This document shows, piece after piece, positions 12,805 through 44,002 of a DNA stretch of 44,002 nucleotides. The notes beneath the pieces are model-generated. The model was not told where the DNA came from and ran no database searches. It saw only the letters and a list, made by a program, of their open reading frames with translations. Source of the DNA: a virus (lineage: Duplodnaviria; Caudoviricetes); the IMG/VR virus record IMGVR_UViG_3300016722_000150, positions 1-44,002 of that record; one strand, written 5' to 3'. Both the position numbers and the translations under genes were made by a program. The stretch's first letter is position 1; each line of letters starts with the position of its first letter.

Positions 12805-13599
12805 TTAGTATCTTTTTACCTTGTTTTTAAGGGAAATATACAAATCTCCCGTGTAAATATTGTACTCAATTTCGTAGATGTGAGTATAATTGTAATCAGG
12901 AATATTAAATATTTTCTCTTGTATAACTGCTGTCGGGTTACTGGCTGTTCCGCTTGCCTGATAAGCAACATTAATCCGAAAATTATTTAAATCTACAATA
13001 GCAGAAACCGTATGAATCCCATTGTATGCAACTTTGTTTCCTGAATAACCAGCGATTTTAACCGTCTGTCCAACAGTATACCCGTGATGCGTACAGGTAA
13101 ATGTTGCCTGTGCAGGTGGCCCGGTTACGTATTCGGCTACAGATTTTACTGAATTATTAAAATTGTCTCATGTTCAAACATCATCGCTTGCTAACAAGTA
13201 TCCTGTGCGATCAGTAGGTAATCTCAATTTATTTGAATTAGACGACATTTTTATAAATAATAACCCGATAGTTCCATCATCTCCATTAACATTATCAATC
13301 CGTAGTGTAGAATACGTTTTGGATCCGTTTACAAAAAATTGAGGAAAGTAGATGCCGGAAAAATCGCATATTGTTATTCCACTACTATCAGACACGGTGT
13401 TTTGCTGAATACGAAATGGAGAAAATGCAGCTAAGGCATTCTGTAACTCGGATACATCTACTAATCTTTGTGCATCATCGCTACCTTGCTTCGTGTACAA
13501 ATGTCCACCGTTTGCAAATATTCTGAGGAATCCGTCTTCTATTGTGCCACCAACAAGATTCGCTAATTGTCCTAATAAAAATGAGCCAATAAATTTCAT
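12805..13599 (-). CDS. Tail fibre-associated structural protein, 264 aa (2 TGA)
   Basis: Frame stays open past TGA at 13174 and 13168 down to a TAA abutting the terminator; HGYTVGQTVKIAG beta-barrel-like motif. Confidence 0.75.
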
Positions 13600-13615
13600 A
13601 GTTTTAAATCAAATT

Positions 13616-13638
13616 AAAGGGAGGTTTTGCCCTCCCTT
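13616..13638 (-). terminator. Hairpin, possible terminator
   Basis: AAGGGAGG/CCTCCCTT stem with a T-rich tail on the minus strand. Confidence 0.55.
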
Positions 13639-13660
13639 GGTTTATTAGTTAATTAAAATA

Positions 13661-14923
13661 TTAGGTAGGCATACCCGATGCGATTACATCAAGAACCCCC
13701 GTAATTACAATTCGTCCATCAAAAGCTGAATTTGATTGAAGGCTTAGTGTCCCATTTGTATAGTTCATGACACTATCGCACTCAACTTGATTACCGGTAG
13801 TATCAAAAAGCTGAAAAACAACATTATTACCACAATGGTGTACGTCATTAGTAATTTGAAAAGATGTACTGGCCGGTAGTGAGATGTTTGCGGAATACAT
13901 TTTAACCTTACTATCAGCATAAGCTTTCACGGCTTTTACTGTTGGTATTTCTGTATCAACATTATCATCAAGAAAAGCCTTGACAACTCCTGTTTTAAAG
14001 TTGTCAATTTCAAGGTTTGAAATGGTATTATTGTCTGCGTTGATAGTTTTGTTCGTCAGCGTTTGAGTTGCTGCCAATTTAACCAGGTCGGCAGATTCGC
14101 TGTTATCAATGCCGTCGAACATTGCCGCCGTAATGCCTGTCGTTGCATCTTGGTTGGCGATAATCATATCTCCAATATTCAACCCGGTTCCACTGGATGG
14201 TGTAGTAATTCCCGAAGCGCTCCCGGCAACGGTTACTTTCCAGAAATAGCCCTTTTTAATAGTGGTAATACCATTAGTAGCAATAGTTTTAGTCCCATCA
14301 AAACCTCCTGCCTGATACAGAAGCCCTCCTGCATATTGCGATTGTAAAGCTGCAATCTTAGTGTCTACATAGGTTTTTGCAGCCTTTTGAGACGCAACCT
14401 TAACATCGCTGTTCCCGGCCAATGCACCGTCAGTGTCAAGATAGGTTAACGGCATTTGCTGGACATTGTCTACGCTCCCCAATCCCACTTGAGCCTTTGT
14501 AGTGTTGTGCGGGTTGCTGGTGCTGGCGATGTGTGTGTCAATCTGCGCATGGGTATTTGTTCCTGCACCGCTCAGGTTTTGATGCACAATATTAGCTTCG
14601 ACAACATCAACTTCAATTTCATCGGTGGCCGAAGCCGTAACAACTATTTTGGTTGACTTAGCTTTAATTTTTTTAAAGTTGTGTACGCCGGCAACGGTAT
14701 CTCTTCAAATACCAACACCAGCAGTTCCGACATTAGCTGCTGCATATGGAGCTTCACAATAAACTCATGAAGTCCCATTATAACAGCCCTCCTTATTCAG
14801 GGTTGTATCGAAATACTTCTGTCCTTTCTTCGGGGAAGCAGGAGCCGCAGCCAAATTTTGCAAGGCTGCATTTTGAAGCTCGTTCCCGTTTAAATCTATA
14901 CTTACTAAGAATTTTTTTGCCAT
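13661..14923 (-). CDS. Tail fibre protein, 420 aa (2 TGA)
   Basis: Starts [19 protein letters not shown]; YNGTS[TGA] at 14765 and TGA at 14705; [17 protein letters not shown] and QTLTNKTI fibre repeats. Confidence 0.85.
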
Positions 14924-18134: not shown

Positions 18135-18335
18135 CTATTCAGTTTTTTGCTTAGTGAAATTGCACAAGAAAGCAATGGCCGATAGTCCGATATACGCCAC
18201 CGATTTATAATCGTTTCATACCGGATTAGCAAAACTGATTGAAGCAATGACCGGAATCATTACTACGCAAAATGCACCAATGGTTTTTGCCACCACATGG
18301 TCGGCTTGTTTGAATCGTTCGATTAGCTTATTCAT
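18135..18335 (-). CDS. Holin-like two-TM protein, 66 aa (1 TGA)
   Basis: Hand translation MNKLIERF...CVVMIPVIASISFANPV[TGA]NDYKSVAYIGLSAIAFLCNF; TAATG-coupled to the spanin; TGA at 18216. Confidence 0.65.
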
Positions 18336-18826
18336 TATATTTTGATTTTAAATTTCTTATAAATGATAAATCCGGCAACAGCCAGTATAATTATGACAAT
18401 GGCGACAACATAAACCCATCATGGGATAATAAACCCCGTTTTTACGATGGCTTTATTTGTCGTATTTATTTCTTTTACAGTTACTCCCTTTTTGTTAAGG
18501 TCTGTCTTTTTATTACTATTAGTCTTTGCCAATGACTGTTCTTTTACCGCCTTTTTCTCGGTAATTTTTCTATCAATGACTTGGGTAGCGGGGATTAGGT
18601 TTCCTGCAGAATCCTTAGTCGGCTGATAGGTAGTTGTAATGTGCTCAATAGTAGTTGTTATTGAGCTGTCAGTTTTAGTGGTACTGTCAGTTGTTCGGGA
18701 ATTTTGAACAACCGAGGAATCGGTAACGGTGTTACTGGTCTCCAATGTCTTTTCTTTGTTGACCTGTTTAGTCATGGAACAGGAAAACAACATGATTGAT
18801 AATAAGATAAATGTTAGTTTCTTCAT
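18335..18826 (-). CDS. Unimolecular spanin-like lipoprotein, 163 aa (1 TGA)
   Basis: N-terminal lipobox LFS-C; reading through TGA at 18419 adds the TM helix WVYVVAIVIIILAVAGFIIYKK. Confidence 0.8.
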
Positions 18827-19439: not shown

Positions 19440-19733
19440 TTATTTTTTAATTCGTTCTTTTAAGATTACGATGTCTTTTTCATGCTCATCAAGGCGTTCC
19501 CCATGTTCATCAAGCCGCTTATCTACAATTTTATGAGTTTTAGCGCAACTAACTTTCATATCTTCACTGCTTTGTTTATCTACGGCTTGTGTCCTACGAA
19601 TAAAATCGACAAGGGTTTTCACTTCTTTAATGGTATTGATTTGTATTTTTAAGAAATACAGAATACCGCCTAAAAAAAACGTTATCAAAAATGCGGCGAC
19701 ACCTAAAAGAAATTTGTATGTTTCTACATTCAT
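19440..19733 (-). CDS. Single-TM coiled-coil protein (holin or antiholin candidate)
   Basis: N-terminal TM and RLDEHGERLDEHEKDIVILKE coiled coil; next to the endolysin. Confidence 0.6.
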   Translation of the reverse strand: MNVETYKFLLGVAAFLITFFLGGILYFLKIQINTIKEVKTLVDFIRRTQAVDKQSSEDMKVSCAKTHKIVDKRLDEHGERLDEHEKDIVILKERIKK

Positions 19734-20344
19734 TACTGACTTGATTTTAAAAGTTCATTAACTTTTTCGTAACATATTTTTGAAGATGCATCACTACCCA
19801 TAATTGCAAACACTCTTCCGGCACAGAACCAGGAGAACATGTCAATAAGCCTGTCCGGCAAATTTTCGGCTATTACTTTTTTTGAGTAGTGAAAATAATT
19901 TATTACAGGCGATGCTCCCGTTATCGTTTGTGGCAGTGGTATTAAATATCCTCTATCTACTGTGCTTTCTTCATCCGGGATGTATATTACCATAGGCTTG
20001 TTGATGGTTGCTTTAAGATAATAAAATTGTTGTAGTCGGTTGCTTACCGAATCTTCATCGACAGTTTTATTAACATATTGGTTCCATCCAACAAGCCCAA
20101 AGCGAACCATTCGGATAAAATCGACGGGTAGTTTATACACTCATCTATTATCCACCATGTCGGTTAATTGTACGGCGGATAACTTCCCGATAATAGCAAG
20201 GTTATTAGGCAGGAGCTCGCATAACGATTTGGCGGAATCGTCAAGTTCTTTTCCTATTTGGATACTTGCCGGAGTATCGCCGGAGCCTAAAGATATTTCA
20301 TCCATTCGGGCGGCCACTTTTATTATCAGGTTCGGAGTAGTCAT
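19733..20344 (-). CDS. Head-to-tail adaptor-like virion protein, 203 aa (1 TGA)
   Basis: Two track ORFs abut in frame at TGA 20141: DNR[TGA]VYKLPVDFIRMVRF. Confidence 0.7.
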
Positions 20345-20811: not shown

Positions 20812-22194
20812 CTAAACTGCTTTACTGATGATACAGTGAGTATCGGCATAGCGAGTTTCAAGCCCGAAGGTTTCCTCGATAACATAAGCGTCAACATTAC
20901 TCGTTCCTGTCTCTTTCAGATTTAATTTTCTGGTCTGCATGGCTTGGTGTACTCGTTTATTGATATTATTCATATCAACAACTACGCCCTTGGCTGCCCA
21001 ACCAGCGTCATTTAACAGGACATGGTGTTTGAAAAGTAAATTTCCAAAGTTGGTCTGTACCTTGCTAAAGGTAATACCATAAACAACTTCCGTTGAATTG
21101 GCGGCTAACTGTTTCTGAATTGTAGGTACGTTTGAAAGTTCCTCCATGAGGTCAGAACCTACAAAACAGTATCTTAAATCAGCCCCAGAGTTACCTACAA
21201 AAATTGTCTTCGCCCAGTTGTTAAACGTTTTATCATCAATGGCTCCCGAAGTGTACTGTACACCTTTCTTGATAAATCTGGTAATACCACCAGACATATA
21301 TTTATAGTCGTTTCCTTCGGGGTCGAAGATTTTAGCCTTTGCACCGAACAATGAAGTTAATTCCATTGATCTACGAAGGTCAAATAGTGAAAGGGCCTGA
21401 ATATCCCTTGCATCCCATTGCACCTCTTTATTGTGCATTTTTTCATACATAGATTCCTCAATCTGGCACATGTGAATCTGTGTGTAGTTCGACGAATCGA
21501 AAGGCATTAATCCAAAAGGAGATGTTTTTGCATCCTTTTCAGCCTTAGCATTACCAATGCGGGTAAGTTTTGTGGAAGCGGCGATAGCCGGAATATCGGA
21601 GGCTTCGGCATCTGCCAGAGGATTTACGGGAATTACCGATAACTTACCTCCGGTTTCCTTTTTAACAATGTGTAAAACAAGCTCTTTCCCATCTCCACCC
21701 AGCACATTGTTAACAAATATGTTATCATCAACTTGCCAAATATTGGGCTTACTGACGGTAACTTGATATTCCTTATTAGGGTCTTTCGTCTGAGGGGGTA
21801 CAAATGGAGTAGATGCAGAAATAGTGTCCATCGTGTCCCTTACATCCGAGGAATACCATTTAAACTCTCATGAGTTTGTGCTTTCATGACCTCCGGCTTC
21901 CCTGATAAGTGTGTCCATTGGGAAAAGTGAAGGTTTCATCTGCGTAATTCGCTTCGAGATGTCAGGTCTTAACAGGTCAGGAGCGGCAGCAGCGGCAGTT
22001 TCCGTATCTACCGGCACATCAGCTATCACTGAGCCGACAGGAGCAACGGCTATCATAGCTCCACCAGCCACCGGATAGATACTGGCGATAAAGTTATAGA
22101 TGTCGGCAAACGAGTAGCCAACACACAGGGCAACGAGAACGCTCATTGTGAGCAATACAGTCAGCCCTTTTAAAATTTTGATTGATTTTTTCAT
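20812..22194 (-). CDS. Major capsid protein (HK97 fold, SU10/DUF5309-like), 460 aa (1 TGA)
   Basis: Joined at TGA 21868 (STNS[TGA]EFKWY); NYTQIHM, MELTSLFG, MSGGI and TNFG motifs; downstream of the scaffold and followed by a terminator. Confidence 0.85.
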
Positions 22195-22234: not shown

Positions 22235-23140
22235 TTAATGTTTAAGTGCAAACCTGTTTTGTTTAATGTTAAAATCCTCCAATGATCTTTCAATGGGATT
22301 CAATTCGGGTTTTGCTTTTTCGGTAGTTTTACCAGTAGATGAGATGGCGGGTGTGCCGTCGCCAATAGCTTTTTCCTCTTTCGCGATTTTTTCTTTAATG
22401 GCAAGGTTTTTACCTTTGATAACACCAATTTCTTTGGCTTCCTCCACTTTTTTGTCGTGGGTTACGCCTTTATAAAACTTTGTTAGAATATCAGTTGTAA
22501 TCTTACCGTGAGAGGTGTTATCCATGATGTCATCAATAACCTGGAAAAAGTTTGCAGCTTCCTCATCGGAGAGCTTGTTTTCTGTTACGAATTTTTGGAT
22601 TTCCTGCGCACTGACGTTTAGATTCTCCTGAATCTCTTTCATCTGTGCATCGGATTCAGCTTTCATCTGCTTGCGTCCGTCAGCATTTTTCTTCCAGCCT
22701 TCAAAATCGGGGTCGCCTTCTGCCGGAACCAGTGCTTTGATTTCATCTTCATCAAGAACATGAGGCAATGCCTGTACGAGTGTAGCTCCTTTGGCTATAA
22801 GCCGGATGATTTCTGCTACTTCGGGGTGGTCGGTGAAAACCGAGATAATCTCAGCGTTCGCCTCTGAATTTTTCTTTAATTTGTCATGGACTCCTGCTAA
22901 ATGGGTGGATGCCAATTCGTCAAGTCCATCACCATCTAAGTTTTCAACATCCTTATCGGGATAATGTTCTTTCAGGAGAGAAGCAGTTTTTCATACTTTT
23001 TTCGCCGGAGCACTCTCTGTTTCCGTTGGCGGTTCATCCGAAGCCGGTTTAACTTCCGGGGTAGCGTCTGTTGCTACTGGTTCATTTCCATCGTCAACAG
23101 GCACATTGTCAGGGTTATTTGGATCAATTTCTTTACTCAT
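22235..23140 (-). CDS. Capsid scaffolding protein, 301 aa (1 TGA)
   Basis: Acidic N-terminus MSKEIDPNNPD... continues through TGA 22991 into the helical track ORF; precedes the MCP. Confidence 0.75.
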
Positions 23141-23286: not shown

Positions 23287-23547
23287 ATGGAACTTAATGG
23301 AAATTTTACAGATAATACAACCGGGAAATACCGTCGGCTTTACGCAAACTACCTCCTTATATTAAGGAAACATGGAGCTTATTCTAAGCTAATGCCTAAG
23401 AAAATCCTGTATGCAGAGGCGGGGGATACTGTATGAATGGCTCCGAAAACAGCAGGAAAAATAATTAATAAGATGATTAGGGACAACGTTAAGTTGACCG
23501 AGTTAGAAATGGCGGAAGCCGAAAAAGCATGAACGAATGAATCTTAG
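23287..23547 (+). CDS. Small HTH-like protein upstream of terminase, 86 aa (2 TGA)
   Basis: KKILYAEAGDTV[TGA]MAPKTAGKIINKM completes an HTH-like pattern; the frame ends at a TAG overlapping the terL start. Confidence 0.6.
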
Positions 23548-25546
23548 TCGTGAGAAAATTCGTAAAATAATTTCGGAAAACAAGTCCCGAAATGCTGAAA
23601 TAGATGCGCCATACGATCCTGTTATTGGGATAGGTTCACCTATTCCAAGGTTCCAATTCAACATTGATAGCATAGGAGAACATTACTTAATGTTACCCAG
23701 AACAATGTTGGATATTGATATTATACAATTAATCCGTAGAATCGGGAGTATAGAGACTTTTGTACTTAAATATATCCCCGGATGCAGGAATTACGGAGAT
23801 GCTATTTCTGATTTTGTTGCAAATATCAATAAGCTACGCCTTGAACACGACTTTGAATTTTGGGCAGCTACATGCGCAAAAATAAAACCTAAGGCTGGTG
23901 GCGAAATTCCTTTCATTCTCAACCACCCACAAAGGAGATTGCTTAAAAAACTTGAGAAGTTAAGATTATCTGGTATACCCATAAGGATAATATTACTGAA
24001 AGCTCGTCAATGGGGCGGTAGTACATTGGTACAATTGTATATGGCCTGGATACAGCTTTTTGTTAAAAAAGGTTGGAATAGCGCTATTGTTACCCAGGTA
24101 GAAAATCAAGCCCGGCACATCAGGGGTATGTTTAATACTGTGAGAAAGAATCACCCGAAAGATGTTCTTAACTTTTCATTTGCACCTTACGAGGGGAGTT
24201 CAAAGAATAAATACATCCCTGAACGTGATTGCATCATAGGTATCGGCAGTTATGAAAAGCCGGATAATTTGAGGACGTTTACCTTTCAAATGCTCCATAT
24301 TTCTGAAGTCGGATTATGGACAGAGACATTGGGTAAGAAGCCGGAGGATTTAACGCAGTCTTTACGATCTACTATTCCCCAGCTACCCCTTACTATGGTT
24401 GTACTCGAAAGTACAGCAAAGGGCGTAGGTAATTTCTTTCATCGTGAATGGAAAGCTGCCGAATCTGGAAAAGGGTACGAACCAGTATTCGTCCCCTGTT
24501 ATGAAATTGAGGAATACAGGAAACCAATAAAAGATGTTGTTGAATTTATCAATTCGATGGATACCTTGGATTCTGATGGATATGCTTGGGAGATGTGGCG
24601 ATTGGGAGCCACTCTTGAAAGCATTAACTGGTATTTCAATTTCAAAAATACCGAAGGCTACGACAAATGGCGTATGCAGTCTGAGTATCCGAACACAGCA
24701 GGCGAAGCTTTCCAAACTACCGGACACCGTGTATTTCCATTACCTTATGTACTTAAGGTAAGGAAAAACAATACTGATCCTGTTTTTGTCGGAGAGATAT
24801 TCGCCGATAGTACAACGGGAGCCAGCGCATTAAAAAACATTCAATTTCAACCTGTTAATAAAGGTAATCTATGGATTTGGGCTAAGCCTGACACTACTCA
24901 GTTGGTATCTGACAGATATGCTGTGTTTGTTGACATCGGAGGAAGGAGTGCGGGAGCCGACAACTCGGTTATTCGGGTTATTGACCGACTGCCTTTAATG
25001 AAAGGATTACCTGCTGAAATGGTATTAACATGAAGCGGACACATTGACCACGACCTTTTAGCATGGAAAGCAACACAGATAGCGGAATGGTACGGACATG
25101 CACTGTTAGCGATAGAAAGCAATACGCTAACGTCGGAATCGGAAGATACGGAAGGCGACCACTTCCTTACAATCATGGATACCATATGCAATTTTTACGA
25201 CAATCTGTTTGCCCGCACGGATCCGGACAAAGTAAAACAGGGTATACCGATAAAATACGGATTTCATACAAACAAACAGACAAAGAGCATGATAATTGAC
25301 CGTCTACTTGCCGCTATGAGAGATGATGAATACATAGAACATGACGCAAGAGCCTGCGATGAAGCGGACACTTACGAGACAAAACCTAACGGAAGCCTTG
25401 GAGCCGTAGACGGGTGCAAGGATGATAAGGTAATTACGTCGGCAGGTTGTGTATGGCTTGCATTGGAGTATATGCCACTACCACGGATAATAACACCGGG
25501 AAGAGGAAGAGTAAAAAGAAGAATTGTAGGAGAAGCAACAATTTAA
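23537..25546 (+). CDS. terL: Terminase large subunit, 669 aa (1 TGA)
   Basis: LKARQWGGST, LHISE, LESTAKG; nuclease VDIGG...IESN...DDKV is split by TGA 25031 (LT[TGA]SGHIDHDLLAW). Confidence 0.95.
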
Positions 25547-26000: not shown

Positions 26001-26216
26001 ATGGAATCTTTAGAGGTATATAAATACGGAACTCGGGTAACGACTAAGTTAGGATGTATACCCGCAATCATTACAGGAGTAACAATTAGAGGAGATTCTG
26101 TATCCTACGAAATAAGCTACTTCTATGAAGGAGAGCATATAACGGTGTGGATAAAGGACATGGAATTTACGGTATATGATGATGCAGAAAAAACTAAAAT
26201 AGGATTCAAAAAATGA
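26001..26216 (+). CDS. Small SH3-like hypothetical protein
   Basis: Beta-rich, ends KIGFKK; TGA-TAG stop. Confidence 0.65.
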   Translation: MESLEVYKYGTRVTTKLGCIPAIITGVTIRGDSVSYEISYFYEGEHITVWIKDMEFTVYDDAEKTKIGFKK

Positions 26217-26434
26217 TAGTACACGTAATTTGCTGGGACGGCATCGAATACGACCGAAACGCAACTCAAGAAGAAATTACCCGGGAAAAAGAAAGCGGAA
26301 ATGTGAAAGAGGAAAATGGAATAATCACATTTGATTTTTCCCTAATGAGAAAATACAAACAAATTAATCATAGCCTTGGGCGGCGTTGTAGAACCCGTGG
26401 ACGATATGTCAGACGCAAATCAATATCAAGATAG
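26213..26434 (+). CDS. Hypothetical protein
   Basis: ATGA-coupled ORF. Confidence 0.5.
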   Translation: MIVHVICWDGIEYDRNATQEEITREKESGNVKEENGIITFDFSLMRKYKQINHSLGRRCRTRGRYVRRKSISR

Positions 26435-29407: not shown

Positions 29408-29933
29408 TTTCTTCTGTTATTTTAGCTTCTTCTATAAGTTTCTGCACCTTTCCTTTTGTCTTTTCTCCCTTAGAAAGAATGAGTTGGTTAATTTGTGTAA
29501 ACCAATTATTCGTTGCGCCGGATGGGTTAACACCTTCCGGGCTTCCATCGGGTTGTTTCTCTGCTTCGGTAATAGTGTGCAAAAGCTCAAGGCAAATCTT
29601 TATATTGAATAATGAAGTTTCTCTTGGTATTAGCGTCATTATTCTATCTACCGCTAATACTTTGGCTTCGTAAACCTTTTTTATGTACTCAATTTCCTTT
29701 TCTGCATTTGTTTGTAATATGTTGGTTGCAATCTGCATCGGTTGCTGTTTTTTTGCCTCCAACTTCGTTGCTCTTTCATCATAGGCTTTTTCCGTCTCAA
29801 TCATCCATTCCTTTTTTCACCTCATTAAGGTTGTACTTGGTATACCTGTTCGCTTTTCGGAAGCAATCAGATTTCACTTATTACGTTTGAGTATATCTAT
29901 GGCTAATTTTTTTTGTATTCTTGTATATTTCAT
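29388..29933 (-). CDS. Terminase small subunit-like HTH protein, 181 aa (2 TGA)
   Basis: N-terminal HTH MKYT...ASEKRTGIPSTTLMR[TGA]KK appears only with readthrough (TGA 29874, 29817); helical body. Confidence 0.7.
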
Positions 29934-31973: not shown

Positions 31974-34900
31974 CTATTTGGTTTTTTTAATTACTAAGGA
32001 CTCTGCCTTATTAAATCTTGTTGAGTCAGCGAGAAACCTTTTCCAAAGGGTTTTTCTTAATATTATTGCGTTATCGTAAACCTTTTGGTCATCGGCGGAC
32101 AAACTGTTTTTAAATTCAATGTCATTTTTTTTCGATCCAGTAAATGGTTTAAATAAACTTTGATGGAATCCATGAATTACTTTCTGTGGATTATCCGAAT
32201 TTTTAATGAGTTCAGAATATTCATCTACGGCTTTGTCAATATTATTATCCATCAATGCATTTCTTAAATCTCTGTATTTACTTGGTGGAAATTGTCCTGA
32301 ATTGTCTACAATTCCCTTATCTTTTTTCCATTTATCGACAAGTCCATAAACATCTTGTAATGGGGAGTACCTTGTAACACTTAATCCGGCTGCTGATAAC
32401 AAAGATTCAAAAGGGTTTACTTCTTTATCTTTGTTTGCTCCGGGAATTAGTCCCTTTGCACTTATAGGAATAGGAGCGGAGATAAGTTCTTTTATGTAAT
32501 CCTGTATAGGTTCTGGCTGGTCTCTTCAATCCTTTCCAGTGAGCATCCATCTTGCAGTTTTTCCTACAACAGGAGATAACCTACCAGCAATAAATTGATG
32601 TGGACGTTCATAAAGGTTATAAAGGTCTCCGGGGACTGACCTTAATCCGTAACGTCTGTTATGGTAGATAACATCAAACGGTTCATCGTTATGGTAATCA
32701 TCATCTAATAATTTATTTAATATCCTTGCAGTTACAAATAAGGTTACAGCCAATACCGCTAACGCCCTAAATTGTTCCGCACCTGATTTGCCGCCAAGTA
32801 ATACTTTTGATGCCTGACCCGCAAATCCTGCACGAGCTTCTAAAAAGTCCGGTGCAAGTATTGTAAGCCTTAATACGTTTTGGAAGGTTTGGTTGCGTCC
32901 CATGTCAACATAATTAAGGTTTCCATATGCTGCATTGGCTTGATGTGCTGATAAGTATTTAACATCATCTAAAACCGAAGGGTCTTTTTCAATTTCCTTA
33001 GCCCAGCGTCGGGCGTTTCGTTTAAGAATGTGTTGATATGTCTTGTACTTCAATCCCGGAATGTAATAAAGGAAAAGAGGTTCTGATATGGTTTTTAATA
33101 CTTTGCCTATACCCGGTATTTTATATAATAACTCACCGGAGCCAACGCCTTCCCTGAATGCGTTCATTGCATTATAATCACCGGATAGTTGTAACCCGTG
33201 GCGGGCAGCGTCCATCTGTTCAGGGTTATTCTCTAAATCCATGTGAGGAATATTATAAAACGGGTTAACCAAATGACCAATAGCATGTGTCCCTTCCTGT
33301 ACATAATGGAAAGTACTCACACTAAACATTGCTTGTTTGACAACGTTTTGAGTGTTCTCAATGCCTTTAACAAGATACTTGGGAATTAATGAAAGCGCGC
33401 TACCATCTGAATTATACCAGTCCTTTATAGCGGAACTTCCAAATACATTTTTAAGATGACGATGTATTTCGGGATGTAAAAGCATATCCCCCTGAATCAA
33501 AATGCTTGTACCATCATCTGCTTTGCCTACTCATTTCCATTTTGTTAGTGAATAATGATTTAATCCCTTATAGTCTGAATAATCTCCTGTTTTTGCTAAA
33601 GGGATAACGAGGACTTTTGCTGTTTCGCCTGAACCTTTTTTTATTGGTATACCAACACCTGACGGAATCGCAAGCGGTCTGCCATCTGTCGCCTTACTAT
33701 TTGATAAGTCCTTAATGAACTCTTTTGTAGCTACTGTCTTTCCAAATTCAGAAATATATAACGATAACAGATCGGCAATATCCTTTGATACGGTTTTGTA
33801 TCCTGCCTGTTCTGCATCAAATATTGTTGGGAATGTCCTTTTCTTCTGTGCCCTGAATGACTTCATTAATTTAGCAGAGCCAAGAGTTGGTTTTCCATCT
33901 TCTTTAGGTTCGGTATTGATTAATCTATTGACATAATTTTCAACTGCATTATCCAAAATTCCCAATGCTTCTCCTTTTTTCTGAAAGAAGTCGTAAATAT
34001 CACTTGCTTTTTTGGCGTATTCTTTATCCTTATCAGTAAGATTTAAAGCATTTGTGTAGTCTTTTTTAAGAGTTTTATCATTAGTTAAAGCCTCCCATTG
34101 TTTTATTTTGTCAACATCTCCGCCCGATTCTATCCATACATTTACTGCACGTCTTGTATCTGGCTCTGGAATTGCTTTTTTAAATTCAGCATTTATATTT
34201 CTTGCCTTAATGGCAGTCATTTGCATTTCCGCATTCCAATTGTTAATCGTTTTTTTAAATTCGTTAAAGTCTGGTAGGTCAATGATTTTTTTTCTAAAAT
34301 TATCAATCTCCGTAAATATCCTGTTTAAGAAAGCCGGGGACTTGGGCTCTGTTTCTTTTTTCTTTTTTGAAAACCGTACATCTTTTAGAAAATCCCCGGC
34401 GTACTCCGGCTGACTGTCGGGTTTTGTGGTTGGGTGTTCTATTCTTTCGGGAAGTACTGCGGATTTTCGTCGGCTAAATTGTTCAGTATCTTCAACCTTT
34501 CCGATAGCGTCTTTTTGTTCGGGTTCTTTTTCAACTCCTCGTTGTACATTCCCCAAATTGCTTTCGGCATTTCCCTGATTGTCATATTGCCGTCCGTCCC
34601 TATTACTTCTACTCTGTTGTAAGTTTCCATTTGTTATATAATTAAGCGTTTTAAATAATACTTCTTGAATTGGTTCTGGATACAAAGATAAATCAACAGT
34701 CCCACTTGCAATATCCTCTATCGTATAATTGTCCAAAAGTTTTTCAGCTGCAAAAGCCACTATCTCATCTGCTATCTCATAGTCGCTCATTTCATTTACA
34801 TCGTACTCTTCCGGAAGTTGTTTTTCTTCATCTGTTAAACGTGGGAGTATTGATACTAATTCATTATATTCGATAATATTACGCGCTGAATTGTGTGTTT

Positions 34901-37900
34901 GCTCGTGTAGTCACGTCCGTATTATTTCGTTTCCGGTTTTATGTGGGAGTGTATTTATGAATACTTTTCCATAAAGACTTAATCCACCAATAAAATAATG
35001 CTTTATTGCTTCTGTTACTTGCTCGTTGTAATTTATGGCATTAACGGAATTGGCCAAATCTTCGTTTGTTTTTACAATGATAGATGGATTAGCCGAAAAC
35101 ATTTTTTCTACTTCACGGATGATTTGCGTACCCTTCTCATACTTTTCTGATATAGTTTTGGCGGTGTCAAAGATTTTAGGTTTTATTTGAAATGAAGGGC
35201 TTTTCCCCAAATTGGCTTCATCTTTTTCAAAAAACTCACCCATTAACTTCTGAGCCGTATAAATTCCATCAGGTGTATTCTTTCTTTGCCATGCTCTTTG
35301 CGATGGAGACCAGTGAAATCCCCTTGATTTTAAGGTAGCAATTATTTCAGGATTAGGTTTTTCATCAAACATGAGTTGCACCCGTTCCTGTGAATGGTTG
35401 TTCATAATAACTACGCCCTTGTACTTCCCGACTATTTCAGTTTCTTTATTCGTTAAATCCTCTTTCGGTTGTACTGTTTCGGCAAGTTTCCATATTTCGT
35501 TATTGGTTGAAAATATGGGCTTACTATGCTTATCGCCTACCGATTTAACATATTCAAGTGATTTTTTTACATCTTCTGCTTGTCCATTTGCAGCCATCCT
35601 TTTAATAAACCCGGATAGTGAACTGACAAATAACGGTCTTGCCCCTGGATATTCTCCCTTGTCAATAGCGATAATCGAAGCTATTTTACTATCAAGGGTT
35701 TTTTTTATACTCTGCCACCTCTCATCATCTTTCTGCTCCTGTGGTGCAGCGTCTTTTATCGCTTTAATTGCCGTCTTTTCTGCTTTGTCAGCCCAATCCG
35801 AAAATTCAACACTACGATTATGTTCTGCAATTAACGCTTTTTGATTTCTTGCCGTTGGAAATCTTGCCGGGCCTGTAATCATTGGACTCGCAGTACGACT
35901 TTTTGCAGATAATACAGCGTTTTCGTGGCTTAAATATCCTTCTTTGTACCTTTCAAGTTGTTGCCACATTACGGAGATCTGTTCGGGTGACTTAGCCAGT
36001 GCGGATAATTTATTATACAACTCGTCCAGTGTATCTACATAATCACGTTGAGTTTGTGCCGCCCTTTTTTCAGGGTCAAAACTTATTGCTGAATATGCAT
36101 TGTAAGCGTGTTGATAATTAATGTCCGATGGTTCCCATGTTACAGGATTGGATTTGTCTTGTTTGTTTTCCGAAATCATGTCATCAATGACAAATATATT
36201 CCCATTACTATCTTTTAATACGTTTCTTGGTAATAAGTCTGATACAGTGTATTGTCCGTTGGTAAAGGACGTATCACTTAACTTTTTAAATCCAAGTGCT
36301 TTCATGTAGTCTGTAATCTCGGTAGGTGTGGCAAAGTATGAATCTGCAATATACCCCTGTTTAATTATAGGCATAACACTACGGTTATCAAATCCGGTAA
36401 ATCCTATAAGCTGATATTTTGTAAGGGGAAATAATTTGTTGTGAAGTTCTACACCATCTAAGAACTTTAGTATACTGCCATCACTATTAACAAGGTTATT
36501 AACCTTATACACGGCTCTTTCGTTCTCATTCAAATAGACTTCATTTTCATTACCACTTGGGTATGGCACTCCGAAATTGAATGTTTCGGAAATAGGAATT
36601 CATAATCCATTTTCTTTGGCAAATTGTTCCGTTACTTGAGCTTCTATTTCTTGTCTTTCTGCTCCTGTAAGGCTTTTAGTTTCCTGTGCATCTCGAAGTG
36701 TCTCTTCGATTCTTCTACGGCATTCAACGGTAATTTCCTCTGTTCTTCAAGTGCTTTCAACCCAGCCTCCGTTGACTCTTTGTGAAATTGGTTCAGGTAT
36801 TCCATCGTTGTTATTTTCTACAAAATTAATACGATTAATTGAATTGTCAACAGGTTGTTGATTATTATTTTTTAGTTCTGGATATTTTTTCCCTAATTTT
36901 CGTCTGATTGAAAACTCGGCAGCATTTACGGCTATTGCTTGATAAATAGTGAGTTCTGTTCCATTATTTTTTTCAAATCCAAAACGTGAACGCAATTCAT
37001 TTTCTGCTACCGGAGGAATATCTGCGTTGCTTATTTCTCTTTCAAGGTCTGCACGAAGATATTCTTTATGGACTTCATCACTTGACATTGGCGGTTTTGC
37101 CTGTTCATCAAAATAGTCCTTGTTACTTTCAGTATAATCCACCGGATTCTGTGCGTATTCGTTGGGTGTTACATTCGCTTTCTGAATGTCCACATACTCG
37201 CTAAAAGGTTTAGCCTGTCTGTGGCCATCGCCAAGCCACGTCCTAAACGTATCAATGTCGATAGGTGTAATTGCTCCTAATCCCTTCCAACCTTTGTCAT
37301 AGTTCTCCAAATAGGCTTGTTCGGCTTCCTCAATGGAGTTGTAACCTAACATCACCTTGCTTTCGTCAAACTCTCCGGTCTGTGGGTTGTTCTGGTCAAC
37401 GACAAATACCATTTTACTTTCAGGATGATCACCAACAAATACATCTATCTGATCTCCGTCTTTTCCTTTTGTACGGTTGAAATAGCCGTAATGACTTTGC
37501 ATCGTATGGCTTCATGGTTTTCCGTTTGGATCAACTCCGGTTCTTTCGGTTCCGGTAGGGTTCTCAATGGCTATATCCAACCCCTGAACTTTGATGTGTG
37601 CCTTCTTGTAATTTCCGGCTTCTTTTTGTGCAGGGGTAGGAGTGGTGTTTACTTCGTCGGGAGCAATCTGAACGGGTTCACTAATTGGAATTTCTACCTG
37701 TGAGAGAACGTCCTTTATATCGGCGTTTCTTTCAGCTTCTAAGTCCTGCATTTCCTTTTCAATATCATTAATCCTTTTATCGAAAAGAGCTAATGCGGCT
37801 TTCTTGGTATCTTGGGAATAAAGAAATGTCCCTGCGAATAAATCATTTTGTGATTCGTCGGTTTTGGTATCTCCGAATAACCCGTTTCTGCTTTCGAGGA

Positions 37901-40900
37901 ATGCCTCTTTCTTAGAACGCTCTATCTTAGCGTTTTGAAGTCTTGTTTCAGCATCTTTAATGCTCTCGTCATAGAGGGCGTTAATACGGTCTACTTCTCG
38001 CTGTTGGACGTCGGTGAGGGCTGGGGTTGTTGGGTCGGATGGTCTTTCTCCCAATTCCTGTGATCCAGATACATTTCCAGTAACCCCGTTGCTATCTCCA
38101 TCGCCTCTGATAGGGGTATGTCCTGTTTCTTCGCTATCTCCTGCGACTTCTGCGTCATGAGTTCTATGAACTCCTGTTCTGTTAGTTTCTTCGCCATAAT
38201 CTGCAAATATATTATTAATCTCTTCGTCTGTTGTATTATCGTGTGAATAAATTTCTTTCCACCCATCAATTTTATGCAGCTCCTCTTCGGCTTCTTTCTG
38301 TTTTTCGTAGGCTTCCATCTCTGCGATCTCTTCGGGGGTATAACCTTGGTTGGCTATTTCATCATTACTTACCTCATGGTTAGCTAACAGATCTTTTGCC
38401 ATCTGCTGGGGACTGGTGTAACTATTGATAACATCCTCTATTGCATCTCTGTAATCCTGGTCTGTATAACGTAACTCTTCGGGTTGGTTCTCTCACAGGT
38501 AATGTGCGATCTGGTTAATGGTTTGCCCTTGGCTTTTACTTACCCATGTGAACCTTGGCCTGCGTTCAGATTCAACTTTTTTCCTTACTATTGGGTCGTT
38601 CTCTTTTCCTTTCGTCCCGTATAGTTCGAATAATGAATCAGGGTGTAACTTTCCACCACTTGCGAAATATTGCATTGCCAGCGAACGAGGGTCATTGTAT
38701 GTTTTAAGCTTAACCTCTCTTTGTAAAAGTGAAAGTACTTTTTTACGTTTTACAACTGGCGTAACCTTCAAAGGATTTGTCTCTGAAGTTTGTCCCGTTT
38801 TTTGCGTCATTTGCTGGACAATTTCAGGCGTAACTTTGAGAGGTTCAGTTCCATCACCAGCCCCCGCCACCGGCTCGTTAACAGCAGGTGCAGCGGGGTT
38901 GATGGGTTCGGATACAGTCGGTGGAACCTCTTTTGTTTCTGGCTTGGTAGGTTGTGGCTGTTCTTCCGGTATGGGTTGTAACTGGTTACTTTTCTCTTTG
39001 CTATTATGTTCTATATCAGTGTTGTTCGATTGTAGCCGATTGTTTTCTTCTTTGTTATTCCGTTCTATATCAGTGTTATATATAATCTTTACGGTGTAAT
39101 CCGGTAATGCTTTTAGTGGGTTACTGTAATCGGTGTTATCGGTTACGGTATAAGAGAAGTTTGGTTGTATCTTCTCTGGCTTACTTTCGATGAAGCTTTC
39201 AGCGGCTTTCTTAGCATCTACCTCTCTCGTGAAATGGGTATCAACGTCAATGGTATTGTCTGGGTTAATAGTCCCGACATGGTTTGTTTTGCCCACGGCA
39301 AACTGAATCTTTTCCGGCTCTGGTTGGCCGGGGGTTGGTTTGGGGACATCTTCACCGTTCTGTTCGGGGGTTACTTGGTTCTGTTCCTGACTGGCTCGGG
39401 CAATTCCGTTGTATTGATCTTTAGGTATTCATTTCTGGTCTCCGTCTTCATTCTCAAACATCACGGCTCCGTCGGGGTCATCTTGATTGTCTACATAAAC
39501 CAACGTTCCCTTTTCTCCATTAAAGGTTACTGGCTCATTAAGTGTAAATGGGGTAGATTCGCCAGAGGGCGCCGTCTCATTTATAGGTGATTGGGGAGCT
39601 TGGTTGGCAACCTCCGGTTGTTGGTCTGTTACCGGTTGTTCCGGTGTAGATTGGTTTGTGAGTTGTTTGGGTTGCTGTTCCTGCCATGCCTGTTGTTCGG
39701 CTTGGTATTGATCTCTGGCAACCTTATCAGCGTTATATTTATCAATATCGCCCATTAACCGGGCATTACGGAAGGTATTAAAGTCAATAGTGTTTGTTTC
39801 AGTAATCGTCTTGGGGTTGATAGACCTTAACTCATTAGTGATAGGCTTGTTTGTTTCCGGGTCTATCTCTAAACCGTATAATACATTGGTCGGGTCGGTT
39901 AAATTATTGACATCTCCCGCTTTTATGATGTATCTTTTGCCTTCAATCGTGGCCACTTGGCTAATATTCGTACCATCCTGATGTGCTAATTCTCTAAAAT
40001 CGCTTAGGGATTGCATCGTTGATTTACGTGCAATCTCCTCTTCCGGGGAAATAGAAACTGGATTTTTTTCGATACCCTGCAATCTTACTATTTTAACAGC
40101 CTTTAAAGCTTTATTGTAAGCTTCTAATGAACTAATTACATCACTTACATTACTATGGGCAACATCATTCTTGATAATGTTTGCCTGTTCTGGTGTTAAT
40201 TCCTGTTTATTTGAAAAGGCGTCCCAGGCTTTTACCCTGTCCATCCATTCCTTATTTTCTGAACTAATATCCTTTGCCTGACGAGCCGCACCCATAGCCC
40301 CCATAAAAGTGGCCATGTCCAGTATATTAATTCCTTCTTTTGCTAACTCGCTGAACTGTTCAGGATTAGTACCGATATAATCTTCTACCGTTTTATTGCT
40401 TAGGATGCTTGAAATTGGAGTCATCAACACACCGGTTATTTGTTCCGGGGATATGTCGCTATGGCCGGACATACCTAATCCGGCTCCCACGACAGCGTTA
40501 ACGGCGTTCATTTCAAAATTGAATTTAGCAAGATCGGGGAACATAACACCTAACGCGATCTTTCCTAAACCTTCTTTAACTAACTGAGAAATCCCTTCGC
40601 CTTCAGGGACAACGTTACTTCCTGCGAATGATGCCTCCATCGTTCCGGCTACACCTCTTGCAAATCTATCCCAGCCTGATAACTGTCTCGTTTCTCTTAC
40701 TTCTGTATTATCATCTTGCGGGACATAAACATCTTCCTTTCCGGTTAATGCCTGAGTAATTTTGTCAATTCCTTTTCCGGTTCCAATTGTTGGTTGTAAT
40801 AAAAGAGAAATGGGATTAAACCAACTTCCTTCACTCATAAGATAATCAGGAAGGGTTTTTAAAGTTTCGGTTTCTTGTTTTTTATCATTCTCTGATTCAA

Positions 40901-41864
40901 GGTAATCGTGATAATCTTTTGATAACTTGGCCCTTCGTGCGAACTCTTTAGCTCTTGCCGTATCGCCTATTGACTTGGCTTCTTCGCTTTCAGATAGAAA
41001 TGCAAGGTGCATCTTATTTGACACATCGGGCATTTGCTCAGGTGCGACTTGTACGCCCTTCATTGAATTCAGGTAATTGGTTGCATCATCGTTCCGGGTC
41101 GGATCGTTAGTAACTGTCTTAACCTTTAATCGCTGGTAATACAAATCCGGGCTGTTGGGATTAAGCGTAATGGCTTTATTGATGTTATCCAACGCACCTT
41201 TTGTATCTTTTTGATTTAATGCGTTGTATGATTTTAACTGATAAAGATATGGGTTGTTAGACTGTCCATTTTTCTCTAAGTCGGAAATGACTTGATTACT
41301 CTTGTCATAGTTCTTCTCTTTCGAGTGCTGATAGGCTAACTGAAATTCTGCTTGTGTACGTTCTTCTGGCGTAAGGTCTCGGTTGACCTGATAAGTTTCA
41401 GATGGGATTCTGATTGGAATAGGACTTCCGGGAATGTCTATTCACATTGCAGGTGTCTTTCTCTCTTCATTAAACAAATCCTGCGTTGCCTTATCGTCCG
41501 GCATCATTGACAAATTACTGATGTCGTTAACGTTAGTTTTTGGCATGTTATTCAAAGGGTCGTAGGGCTCCTGAATAGAGTGGGTTGCTGTGGGTTTAAC
41601 GGTTCCTTTCGGCTGAATCGGGTTAACTGCTGGCTTTGCGATGGAGTAATTATTAGCCGGTAGGCTGTTCAGCGGGTCGGCGTCATCTACCGCCGGTTGT
41701 GTAACGGGCTGTTTGGAAGTATCCGGCAATATTCCAAATGGGTCATTAACAGCCTTCGGTTTTGCAGCTGGTTGTGGAGCCGCTTTTGTAACTGGTTTTG
41801 CCTGTGGATTTAAGATTCCAAACGGGTCGTTGTCTGTGTTGATATTTAACGAATTGTCATCCAT
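31974..41864 (-). CDS. Giant polyvalent virion/ejection protein, 3296 aa (9 TGA)
   Basis: Nine track ORFs in one frame, with TGA at 41442, 39429, 38493, 37512, 36747, 36600, 34911, 33531 and 32526; TPR-like, inorganic-pyrophosphatase-like, kinase-like and HExxH regions. Confidence 0.88.
34439..34630 (-). CDS. Overprinted 63-aa ORF in the giant gene
   Basis: Same strand, alternative frame, AT-rich leader; the host frame is a hydrophilic linker here. Confidence 0.45.
   Translation of the reverse strand: METYNRVEVIGTDGNMTIREMPKAIWGMYNEELKKNPNKKTLSERLKILNNLADENPQYFPKE
36644..36805 (-). CDS. Overprinted 53-aa ORF preceding the kinase-like domain
   Basis: MEYLNQFHKESTEAGLKALEEQRKLPLNAVEESKRHFEMHRKLKALQEQKDKK; directly downstream of a consensus promoter. 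Confidence 0.55.
   Translation of the reverse strand: MEYLNQFHKESTEAGLKALEEQRKLPLNAVEESKRHFEMHRKLKALQEQKDKK
36821..36850 (-). promoter_or_regulatory. Internal Bacteroidota promoter TTG-N19-TAATTTTG
   Basis: Minus strand GTTGACAATTCAATTAATCGTATTAATTTTGTAG, 15 nt upstream of the ATG at 36805. Confidence 0.6.
37991..38197 (-). CDS. Overprinted 68-aa ORF in the giant gene
   Basis: MAKKLTEQEFIELMTQKSQEIAKKQDIPLSEAMEIATGLL; helical; TATATTTGCA just upstream. Confidence 0.45.
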   Translation of the reverse strand: MAKKLTEQEFIELMTQKSQEIAKKQDIPLSEAMEIATGLLEMYLDHRNWEKDHPTQQPQPSPTSNSEK

Positions 41865-43201
41865 TAATTTACTTTTTGAATATTACCTGCCTTTATAGCT
41901 TGCTCAAGTTGTTCATGTGTGTACCTTCCGTATAAGTCCGCTTCCGGGATAACAGTTCCTATGGCGTGAGGGTCGCTACTTTTAACTATCTTGTAACTTC
42001 CTAATTTATAATGCGATGTTGGGCTTGCTGCTACTGCCTTCTGCATTGGCGTAACTACTTTTTTAGGAACCAATGTTCCGTTTTTATCAACCGTATAATC
42101 TTTCGCAATCTGGTTGTAAACCTTAGCTTTTAAGATTTCCGGGTATGCTGAACCGCCTGCGGCTATCTGGTCTGCTGTCAATCCGCCTGCTAAGTTAGAG
42201 AACGTTGTATTAAAGATTGCTGCGGGTACGGTTACCACCTTACCGTTCAACATCATAGTTGTAGGGGTATTACTTTTATTACCCTTTGTCGCATCGTTTG
42301 CATGGACGATATGAGCAACTTCTAATGCAGTTGCATTGCTGGCAGCATTTCTCCTCTCAGCGGATTTGTTGTTGTTGTCGGAAACGTACTTTGATGTTGC
42401 ATTGTTGGCTTCGGTATTGTTTACACTTGTTGCGTCGTGGTTCTTTGCGATATTTTCATTACTTTCACGAGTTAACTTATTCTGTTCGTCTTCATGATTC
42501 TGTTTAGCTAATGCAGCTTTATACGCTTTGTAACCGTTAAGCGTATTCAAAGCAGATTGATACTTCATAAGATTATATTTTTCCTCCTTAGCTTCCTGCT
42601 TAGCTTTCTCTTGTTCTGCGGCTCCTATCAATTGTTGAGTAGTGTTGTTCTGCTGTGGTGCGTAAATCTTTGCTCCGTGTGAAGCTCCTACCATGTTGGC
42701 AATTGCCATAAGCCCTTGCCCGATGGCGTTAAGTTTTGCATACTTTGCAAATCTTGCTGATCGGTCATCGCTGGGATTCGGTCTGAAACTTTCAACGTAC
42801 TTCTGAATAGCATCATCAGGATACATCTGTTTGTATTGCTCAAACTCACTAAGTGCGGGCTTTGATGGTGCGGCTGCTGGCGTTGCTGCGGATGTTGCGG
42901 GTGGTGGAACTGGTACAGCGTTTGCTTTCGATGTCATCTGCGCCGGAACAGCACTTTGATTTCCTGCCGCATTTCCTTTCGGCTGCATCGGTTCAGGTGC
43001 AAAAGTGTCTTGATAAGGTATTTCCGGGCGGTTATTTAATTTTATATCTCCTGCTGGCTGCGTTGTGGCGGGATGCATCGGGTTAACGGGCGGCATATCG
43101 TGGTTATCGGGGGCAAGCCCGATCTCGTTTTGCGGAACGTATGGAGGAATGTCTGTATTTTCCTCGTCATCTGGCATTGGGTTTATGTTAAATATACTCA
43201 T
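41864..43201 (-). CDS. Internal virion/ejection protein
   Basis: Pro/Ala/Asn-rich, with hydrophobic AIGQGLMAIANMVGA; TAATG-coupled to the giant gene. Confidence 0.7.
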   Translation of the reverse strand: MSIFNINPMPDDEENTDIPPYVPQNEIGLAPDNHDMPPVNPMHPATTQPAGDIKLNNRPEIPYQDTFAPEPMQPKGNAAGNQSAVPAQMTSKANAVPVPPPATSAATPAAAPSKPALSEFEQYKQMYPDDAIQKYVESFRPNPSDDRSARFAKYAKLNAIGQGLMAIANMVGASHGAKIYAPQQNNTTQQLIGAAEQEKAKQEAKEEKYNLMKYQSALNTLNGYKAYKAALAKQNHEDEQNKLTRESNENIAKNHDATSVNNTEANNATSKYVSDNNNKSAERRNAASNATALEVAHIVHANDATKGNKSNTPTTMMLNGKVVTVPAAIFNTTFSNLAGGLTADQIAAGGSAYPEILKAKVYNQIAKDYTVDKNGTLVPKKVVTPMQKAVAASPTSHYKLGSYKIVKSSDPHAIGTVIPEADLYGRYTHEQLEQAIKAGNIQKVN

Positions 43202-43297
43202 TGTTTTTTGGTTTTGTTTTCTATACTGAGAGGACGAGACTAATCGACTGGTTTACATCCTTTCTAAAATATTCATTTTTGGTTAATGTTATACCTT

Positions 43298-44002
43298 TTA
43301 GTAGCCCGTTTTAAACCCGCCTTGACCGATAATTCCTTTCATGGTTGGTGTGAGGGTAGACTTTGTTCCGCTTCCGTAGGCGTCTGCTAAGGTGTAAGCA
43401 CTTGCAGCGTTCCCAATTCCTTGAGCAACATTTCCCCATGTGCTTTGAGTAGAATTAAGAGAATTGTCTGCGCTGTTGATCTTTTGACCGTAAAGGGCGT
43501 TCATACCGTTCAGGTAGTTCTGTCTTACCTGATTTTTGTATTGCTGTCCGTAGCCGTAAAGCTTATTTACGGTCCCGGCGTAGGTCTTATTTGCTTCTGT
43601 ATTAGCTGCGATTTTAGCTTCCGGTGTTGCTCCGCTGGCTGCAAATTGGTTGGCGTATTTCTTTGATTGCTCTTGTAACTGATCTCTGACGGCAGCTAAG
43701 GCTGATTGTGAATCAGCGTCTTTCATTCTGTCACGGTAATATTCATCGTTGTAATAGTTAGTCAGGTCGTTTTCGCGCCTATTGAACAAACCATTTACTG
43801 TCGAATCATGTTTCTTCTGTGCCTGTCCCGATTTTCAGTTACTATACAATGCTGATGCTGCCGAAATAGCTAAAGGAATCAACATTGCGATTCCTTCCTT
43901 TACATTGCTATCACTTTGAGACAGATATTTCTCAAAGAATACAGGAGCAAAGGCGGTGATTATAAAAAGTGTTATCGCTGTGAATCTTACAAATCTTTTC
44001 AT
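43298..44002 (-). CDS. DNA-transfer/ejection protein (P22 gp7-like), 234 aa (1 TGA)
   Basis: Frame open from the ATG at 44002 through TGA 43835; LIPLAISAASALYSN and WGNVAQGIGNAAS Gly/Ala helices. Confidence 0.7.

Follow-up and report, generated by a model that had tools for sequence, protein, structure and literature searches.

The 44,002-base stretch of DNA analysed here (the window) represents one virus record and encodes a podophage with a P22-type portal and an SU10 capsid. Its repressor and replication genes form a plus-strand block at approximately 1.5-12.8 kb, and its structural and lysis genes occupy 12.8-44 kb. We consider the reading of in-frame TGA codons as tryptophan in these late genes, the nucleotide that follows such codons, and a phage-encoded tRNA-Trp(CCA) that may decode them. 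An approximately 95% identical copy of the phage (hereafter the prophage) lies in a 1.3-Mb contig of a Bacteroidales genome (G002), beside a tRNA-Arg gene.

Coverage of the window by open reading frames (ORFs) of at least 100 amino acids (aa) rises from 0.81 to 0.92 when TGA is taken as sense, compared with 0.83 when TAG is so taken. Alignment identifies the encoded residue as tryptophan: the TGA at W499 of the terminase corresponds to tryptophan in 64 of 67 aligned homologue loci, codon 1451 of a giant 3296-aa protein in 7 of 7, and W75 of the portal in four of five, the fifth itself having TGA. At W109 of the capsid the figure is just 3 of 8 homologues, and a capsid locus search returned no relatives. 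In-frame TGA at tryptophan positions is restricted to one lineage, represented by four of the 241 loci examined, two of which (L001 and L071) belong to one contig, one (L070) is the window's own sequence and one (L073) is a prophage. Among the rest, 214 loci aligned without any stop, while in 10 the stops were scattered and numbered one or two; a portal gene with a single TGA in another genome (G326) was rejected as a case of recoding, its TGA marking the end of the gene. Judged by its sequence, the lineage is a member of the late-gene TGA-to-Trp recoded phages, which combine genetic codes 11 and 4.

The recoded codons are confined to late genes. The 24 early ORFs contain 25 TGG codons and no TGA, compared with 84 TGG and 31 internal TGA in the 23 late ORFs, where TGA makes up 27% of tryptophan codons. 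This set of 31 includes one TGA of a holin-like gene (18216-18218) and two of the ORF at 23287-23547, and omits a TGA at 18877, which lies upstream of the likely start of a spanin-like gene and overlaps the endolysin. TGA is present in 16 of the 21 tryptophan-containing late genes (12.4 expected, p=0.03) and is the first tryptophan codon of 12 genes (5.7 expected, p=0.002). This spread and placement fits a lock on late genes, and may also reflect weaker constraint at gene starts. Several sense TGA codons fall inside the first 100 codons or within conserved domains. Classical programmed readthrough, of the kind that yields the Q-beta A1 protein, uses one leaky stop to make two useful products at a low ratio. 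With 31 sites in 16 genes, several of them early or in conserved domains, the window phage does not conform to this single-site type.

The original prediction was of a strong skew in the base that follows sense TGA (position +4), based on a hand count of the 31 internal codons. Our recount reproduces it exactly (A 22, G 7, C 1, T 1). TGG codons of the same 23 ORFs are followed by A 29, G 27, C 14 and T 14 times (n=84), and a Fisher test confirms that the two distributions differ, with an odds ratio (OR) of 7.25 for purine against pyrimidine (p=0.0035) and 4.6 for A against non-A (p=0.00065). Permutation within genes gives p=0.010 and 0.0017, respectively. Expressed per context in a slightly wider gene set (91 TGG), TGA accounts for 42% of tryptophan codons before A, 19% before G, 6% before C and 7% before T. 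The purine effect is specific to the TGA/TGG pair, the corresponding OR being 0.38-1.62 for 13 other NNA/NNG pairs. The A effect is less so, as GTA/GTG (OR 3.2, p=0.0005), CGA/CGG (3.0) and TCA/TCG (2.8) likewise favour A before A. Positions +5 (p=0.007) and -2 (p=0.04) also differ between TGA and TGG, these values being uncorrected.

The skew does not derive from the residue that follows. Serine after TGA is encoded by AGY in five of five cases, compared with one of two after TGG and 238 of 636 serine codons overall, and arginine by AGR in three of three, compared with none of three after TGG and 179 of 341 arginine codons overall. The effect therefore acts on the nucleotide and not on the next residue, an explanation that the TGG control also rules out. 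Avoidance of a DNA motif was rejected since TGAT and TGAC occur commonly in other frames and on the antisense strand, and mutational context since synonymous A/G differences between the window and the prophage (127 of 2236 sites) are unbiased by context (OR 1.03, p=0.92). Two relatives have between them 14 non-redundant TGA sites that the window lacks (10 in G002 and 6 in L071, 2 being common to both), followed by A 8, G 5, C 1 and T 0 times. On their own these give a binomial p of 0.03-0.06, and the lineage as a whole has a purine at +4 in 42 of 45 TGA sites (p=0.0005). At one site, TGG-G has turned into TGA-A among the relatives. The sole TGA-T (18419-18421) is codon 136 of 163 in the spanin-like gene, where it is followed by TGG and lies just ahead of the C-terminal membrane helix; stopping here would remove that predicted helix. 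It is kept in the prophage, as are most TGA sites, so its conservation does not set it apart, and the original suggestion that it may be the tightest lock has a single site behind it. We conclude that the codon-context bias in this TGA-recoded lineage is real and specific.

The genes and codons concerned are listed in Table 1. The spanin-like gene has no Pfam or PHROG match. The giant internal protein has InPase and Kinase-PolyVal domains and is a strain mosaic, the prophage version being 3052 aa with modules swapped. In the early block, a Sak4-like AAA ATPase gene (3953-6064, plus strand) is split by a LAGLIDADG-domain intein. The endolysin of the window is replaced in the prophage by an unrelated 140-aa gene (G002:C3:265590-266012) that already bears two TGA-G, one of them at a conserved-looking tryptophan motif. 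A 564-aa gene inserted in the prophage late region (G002:C3:256895-258589) has no TGA, which may mark it as a recent arrival or as expressed in the lysogen.

Table 1. Features of the window bearing on TGA decoding; a letter following a TGA or its position is the +4 base.
Feature	Position	Strand	Remarks
Terminal TGA with in-frame TAG	1982..1987	+	Early ORF 1847-1984
tRNA-Trp(CCA), proposed near-cognate UGA decoder	8425..8498	+	Found by ARAGORN and Rfam; 74 nt, early block
Terminal TGA with in-frame TAA	12116..12121	+	ORF 11927-12118
Three tail or fibre genes	12805-13599, 13661-14923, 14953-17586	-	Six sense TGA (13176 A, 13170 G, 14767 G, 14707 A, 16356 A, 15315 A)
Holin-like small membrane gene	18135..18335	-	One TGA-A (18216-18218), kept in G002; label inferred from size, hydrophobic helices and position
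Unimolecular-spanin-like gene, 163 codons	18335..18826	-	Lipoprotein signal and C-terminal membrane helix; label inferred from architecture
Endolysin, N-acetylmuramidase PF11860	18826..19392	-	One TGA-A (19203)
Virion gene	19733..20344	-	One TGA-G (20143)
Major capsid protein, PF17236 SU10_MCP	20812..22194	-	One TGA-G (21870)
Scaffold-like gene	22235..23140	-	One TGA-A (22993)
Small ORF upstream of terminase	23287..23547	+	Two TGA-A (23434, 23530)
Terminase large subunit, phrog_2	23537..25546	+	One TGA-A (25031, W499)
Terminal TGA with in-frame TAG	26214..26219	+	ORF 26001-26216; kept in G002 and L071
972-aa virion gene and 181-aa gene	26489..29933	-	972-aa gene: TGA-A 28699, TGA-G 27052; 181-aa gene: TGA-A 29876, 29819
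Portal protein, PF16510	29938..31971	-	Two TGA-A (31875, 31749)
3296-aa polyvalent DarB-like internal protein	31974..41864	-	Nine sense TGA (A 6, G 2, C 1)
T7 gp14-like internal virion gene	43298..43885	-	Weak Pfam match; one TGA-A (43837)

The Bacteroidales host of the prophage uses the standard code with an intact, autoregulated release factor 2 (RF2). Its genome has prfA, and a prfB gene that scores above the curated cut-off and carries the programmed frameshift site. In a sample of approximately 346 kb of its 4 Mb, TGA is the stop codon for 30 of the 218 genes with at least 150 codons, and coding calls yielded 394 TGG and no sense TGA. The six host or island ORFs shown with a TGA all appear to end there, leading us to reject recoding or selenocysteine in the host. 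The +4 bases after host TGA stops (T 18, A 7, C 3, G 2) form the opposite pattern to that of the phage, T following 18 of 30 host stops compared with 1 of 31 sense TGA in the window (p=1e-6). The few phage genes that end in TGA are each backed by an immediate in-frame TAA or TAG (3 of 3, compared with 5 of 44 other genes; p=0.0035), so TGA looks unreliable as a stop in the phage. These terminal TGA-T were set aside as separate proof of context-dependent stopping, the T being the first base of the back-up stop in all three. No att repeat was found at the prophage, and the nearest integrase gene found lies approximately 66 kb past the other phage end (352.6 kb). The prophage is continuous with an extended island (G002:C3:286472-340000) that holds restriction-modification, defence-like and RHS genes; here the repressor region recurs as a second, partial copy near 303-304 kb.

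A tRNA with the suppressor anticodon UCA was found neither in the window (ARAGORN and Rfam; 44,002 bases of the source contig) nor in 140 kb around the prophage. None was seen in the host genome, in which 38 UCA pattern matches coincide with none of 47 tRNA loci (a by-eye comparison, with 150 of 292 candidates scored). Searches for a hidden, intron-split or two-headed UCA tRNA were similarly negative: Rfam at E<=10 returned just two tRNAs, and relaxed ARAGORN gave, among the matches listed, just noise within coding genes. T-loops number only two in each phage genome (window and prophage), and the UCA-type hairpins (2 and 3) all lack a T-loop behind them. Family scans of the window proteins identified no release factor 1 (RF1) or tryptophanyl-tRNA synthetase (TrpRS), and no deaminase match was obtained among 40 proteins. 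An initial tRNA pattern scan gave no matches.

The phage does encode a tRNA-Trp(CCA) in its early block. In both phage copies a G27.A43 mismatch sits atop the anticodon stem, leaving a 4-bp stem and a 7-nt loop, while A9 and G24 are standard (no A9C or Hirsh-type G24A change). On the basis of its sequence, this tRNA has the CCA anticodon, unpinned top pair, 7-nt loop and unaltered positions 9 and 24 that define Blastocrithidia-like 4-bp tRNA-Trp(CCA). The prophage tRNA differs from its own host's gene at positions 43, 44, 45, 47 and 64, all five differences being common to the window copy; tRNA-Trp in both genomes of the host family has G27.U43. The change at 64 creates a U50.U64 mismatch, opening a T-stem pair in the EF-Tu contact region. 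The changes at 43-45 sit at or beside the hinge that Fakih et al. (PMC13092985) tie to UGA misreading. The tRNA is present in both recoded genomes that cover the locus and in none of 35 related phage records, nine of which carry tRNAs; for these relatives the code check was made around the terminase, and it extended to almost the complete record only in G015, G016 and, in addition, G001.

A second tRNA gene (8925-8999, plus strand) is initiator-like, with a 1:72 mismatch and a CAT anticodon, and is without the three G-C anticodon-stem pairs. Its counterparts lie at G002:C3:276279-276352 and G015:C1:18111-18184, and similar tRNAs occur in standard-code relatives. The loop is 8 nt in the window and letter-identical in the X1 contig, possibly from the same sample; in the prophage the loop is 7 nt, and the tRNA body, set between almost unchanged flanks, diverges strongly. 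As a UGA decoder this tRNA was rejected, since no register gives it a loop with UCA and standard-code relatives have a similar tRNA of Met type. Between the two tRNAs lies an ORF (8543-8896, plus strand) present in both recoded genomes and absent from 34 other phage records tested, with 32 homologues. Its model is a winged helix (predicted local distance difference test, pLDDT, 86) whose matches, all weak (best E 0.04), are mostly to DNA-binding regulators. With this fold and no match at E<=0.001 in a narrower fold search, it was rejected as an RF2 antagonist. A further ORF (9046-9435) has no homologue and no atlas match at 0.9.

For comparison with phages that do carry a cognate suppressor, a UCA pattern scan gave 120 loci, 16 of them analysable with a real UCA tRNA, and the five with at least six TGA calls were pooled, leaving out G013 (3 calls) and L381 (5 calls, GC content 0.50). 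In this pool the sense reading of TGA comes from a codon-likelihood caller alone. The caller recovers 19 of the 31 window sites and made 34 TGA calls compared with 12,151 TGG in relative loci outside the lineage (L002-L229). The pooled phages have no bias (TGA: A 39, G 32, C 10, T 29; TGG: A 92, G 81, C 32, T 53; OR 0.89, p=0.72), and the window differs from them with p=0.0014, or p=0.007 when its sites are taken from the same caller. Six viral loci with a UCA tRNA had no TGA recoding called within 10 kb (L405, L407, L408, L419, L433 and L456). The Mycoplasma phages P1 and MAV1 have purines after 73% of TGA against a background of 65%, and the window differs from them too (p=0.021). They use 89 TGA and 17 TGG, with 27% of TGA before pyrimidines compared with 6% in the window. 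In six control phage records TGA makes up 55-91% of tryptophan codons in recoded genes (55-78% in those bearing a UCA tRNA), against 27% in the late genes of the window. The window phage is not a case of Mycoplasma-type reassignment: RF2 is retained and TGA stops are used in the host of the prophage, and sense TGA in the phage is less frequent than TGG and scarce before pyrimidines.

These comparisons bear on the cause of the bias, which had been ascribed to decoding in competition with an active RF2 and not to full reassignment. The second part of that interpretation stands: because host RF2 is intact and TGA makes up only 27% of late tryptophan codons, reassignment is not full, and the host's use of TGA as a stop mostly before T agrees with this. 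Competition with RF2 alone seems insufficient, since the five recoded phages with a UCA tRNA lack a pooled bias, which points to the decoder, a near-cognate tRNA-Trp(CCA) that the original prediction did not name. With slightly better than even confidence, we attribute the bias to a weak near-cognate decoder in preference to RF2 competition alone.

On balance, we favour a mechanism in which the phage's own tRNA-Trp(CCA) reads the 31 late UGA codons by C-A wobble against host RF2, winning mainly before purines, with selection keeping TGA almost only there. The tRNA would be a copy resembling the host's, and the open pair at the top of its anticodon stem is predicted to permit the wobble. Expressed from the early operon, it would accumulate during lytic growth and, with its anticodon unaltered, would be charged by host TrpRS. 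We infer that its readthrough would succeed mainly at UGA-A and UGA-G and fail at UGA-U and UGA-C, so that TGG-to-TGA changes would persist almost exclusively ahead of purines. While the phage is integrated, stray late transcripts would yield products cut short by host RF2. The nine serial TGA codons of the 3296-aa gene set a high demand, as the ribosomes passing all of them would be 1e-9 at 10% readthrough per site, 0.2% at 50% and 4% at 70%. Low-level readthrough of the E. coli type therefore cannot be the whole story. Some further step is probably needed to pass nine sites, and in this mechanism it would probably be one that lowers RF2 activity late in infection.

In support of this mechanism, a 4-bp tRNA-Trp(CCA) boosted UGA readthrough approximately 2.5-fold in E. 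coli, and G:A is among the three commonest unpinned 27:43 pairs in the same study (PMC13092985). Several observations weigh against it. A 2.5-fold boost is far short of the nine-site demand, and G27.A43 is not among the assayed variants of that study in the parts available. In another report, +4G and not A increased readthrough (PMC11126739). The 4-bp tRNA-Trp(CCA) is common in phages, yet clear recoding within 10 kb was seen at only one of 116 analysable loci, 40 of the 116 having G.A; these loci were drawn from two scans (239 loci among the matches listed), and five GC-rich loci with 3-5 calls were treated as noise. The shape of the tRNA alone thus does not predict recoding. The one recoded case is a phage in which TGA is tryptophan (G003; L336, L511-L515); it has only an A27.A43 tRNA-Trp(CCA) in view (55470-55544) and no bias (188 TGA; OR 1.4, p=0.28). 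Since its record is 35% complete and no close relative was found, it may be a counter-example or may have a hidden UCA tRNA. Two UCA controls lean to purines (G007, OR 5.1, p=0.14; G008, OR 2.1, p=0.28) and one leans the opposite way (G006, p=0.004; G004-G006 are interrelated). Finally, the evidence comes from one lineage, and approximately 33 kb of the source contig lies outside the sequence read, the matching flank in the Bacteroidales genome being host DNA. Pattern matches to 4-bp tRNA-Trp(CCA) in viral contigs number an estimated 180 and 460 in the two scans (L262-L380, L575-L694), some of them not real tRNAs, with G.A and C.U the commonest mismatches.

An unlikely alternative is that the host's tRNA-Trp(CCA) does the decoding once a phage protein lowers RF2 activity, the phage tRNA merely adding supply or evading host anticodon nucleases. 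This arrangement predicts the same +4 rule, meets the efficiency demand, and accommodates the many phages that carry a 4-bp tRNA-Trp without recoding; many early ORFs lack a family, and the neighbouring Met-type tRNA, found also in standard-code relatives, indicates that these phages acquire tRNAs for other reasons. The distribution of the tRNA-Trp (2 of 2 recoded genomes against 0 of 35 relatives) and the clustering of its changes at the hinge speak against this alternative, and no candidate antagonist was found, the ORF beside the tRNA being a winged helix with weak matches mostly to DNA-binding regulators.

We consider it still less probable that the bias arises from RF2 competition alone, as the original prediction implied in general form, around an unseen cognate decoder produced by C34-to-U editing of tRNA-Trp or encoded outside the sequenced stretch. 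Competition with RF2 is described for a phage UCA tRNA as well (PMC12636597), and there is space for such a gene in the 33 kb beyond the sequence read, past the undefined far boundary of the prophage, or among the host candidates left unscored. Set against this are the 140 kb around the prophage that yielded none, the two T-loops per phage genome, the lack of a deaminase match, and the UCA-bearing phages themselves, which have no pooled bias and a far larger TGA share. Much the same low probability attaches to the view that TGA codons accumulated recently and near-neutrally under efficient recoding, the +4 pattern combining small-sample noise with a genome-wide tendency for A before A. The sample is indeed 31 codons of one lineage in a pattern first spotted by eye, other NNA/NNG pairs reach an OR of 3.2 for A, and the 14 new sites alone are borderline. 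A purine OR of approximately 7, however, lies far outside the range of the 13 other pairs, synonymous A/G changes are unbiased, TGAT and TGAC abound out of frame and antisense, and the skew holds across the 45 sites of the lineage.

In most TGA-recoded phages no UCA tRNA can be detected. One was reported in only 35% of code-4 phages by Borges (bioRxiv 10.1101/2021.08.26.457843) and in 3 of 17 by Pfennig (bioRxiv 10.1101/2022.06.29.495998), leaving the decoder open in the other 65% and 14 of 17, respectively. A codon-context bias is not reported in the available passages of either preprint ("context" having 1 and 0 matches), and titles and abstract openings, with subscription journals and supplements outside the scope of the search, gave no report of a phage 4-bp tRNA-Trp or of +4 context in recoded phages. 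What the window phage offers is a definite candidate: a 74-nt tRNA that departs from the host's own at five bases. The host gene, host RF2 and an integrated copy are known as well. A decoder favouring UGA-A and UGA-G would also spare host UGA-U stops, which suits a phage residing in the chromosome.

With late-gene code 4/15 phages (Borges, bioRxiv 10.1101/2021.08.26.457843; Yutin, PMC7886860; Pfennig, bioRxiv 10.1101/2022.06.29.495998) the lineage shares TGA as tryptophan in structural and lysis genes, standard early genes, a standard-code Bacteroidota host and an integrated copy, the two prophages detailed by Borges being TAG-recoded. It differs in that no UCA suppressor, RF1 or TrpRS was found in the window phage. 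The Jade phage of Borges likewise reads TGA as tryptophan in late and lysis genes in a standard-code host; its code-change module comprises tRNA-UCA, TrpRS and RF1, none of which was found here. On the sequence read, the lineage belongs with the late-gene code-4 phages but not with the suppressor-tRNA type. In E. coli, normal tRNA-Trp(CCA) competes with RF2 as a near-cognate at UGA, UGA-A being prone to misreading and +4U best for termination (Engelberg-Kulka 1981; Kopelowitz 1992; via PMC5289835). There this is a low-level error, whereas 16 of the 21 tryptophan-containing late genes depend on such reading here, with up to nine sites per gene.

Another close system is the 4-bp tRNA-Trp(CCA) of Blastocrithidia and Candidatus Zinderia, which shares the CCA anticodon, unpinned 27:43 pair, 7-nt loop, absence of A9C and G24A, and UGA as tryptophan without a UCA tRNA (PMC13092985). 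The same article surveys 42,109 bacterial genomes, its main text as available using "phage" and "virus" once each. The present case differs in that the tRNA is phage-encoded, UGA is still a host stop and RF2 is intact. Tentatively, and with a little less than even confidence, we propose that the phage recodes its late genes without a suppressor anticodon, using a host tRNA-Trp(CCA) with an unpinned stem and in effect a four-base code, in which UGA-A and UGA-G would mean tryptophan while host UGA-U stops. If so, it would be the first case of a phage using the Blastocrithidia mechanism and a candidate answer for suppressor-less code-4 phages, with the +4 bias as a marker of decoder type that can be read from sequence only. 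By analogy, the system likely works as the Blastocrithidia 4-bp tRNA does, in the presence of RF2.

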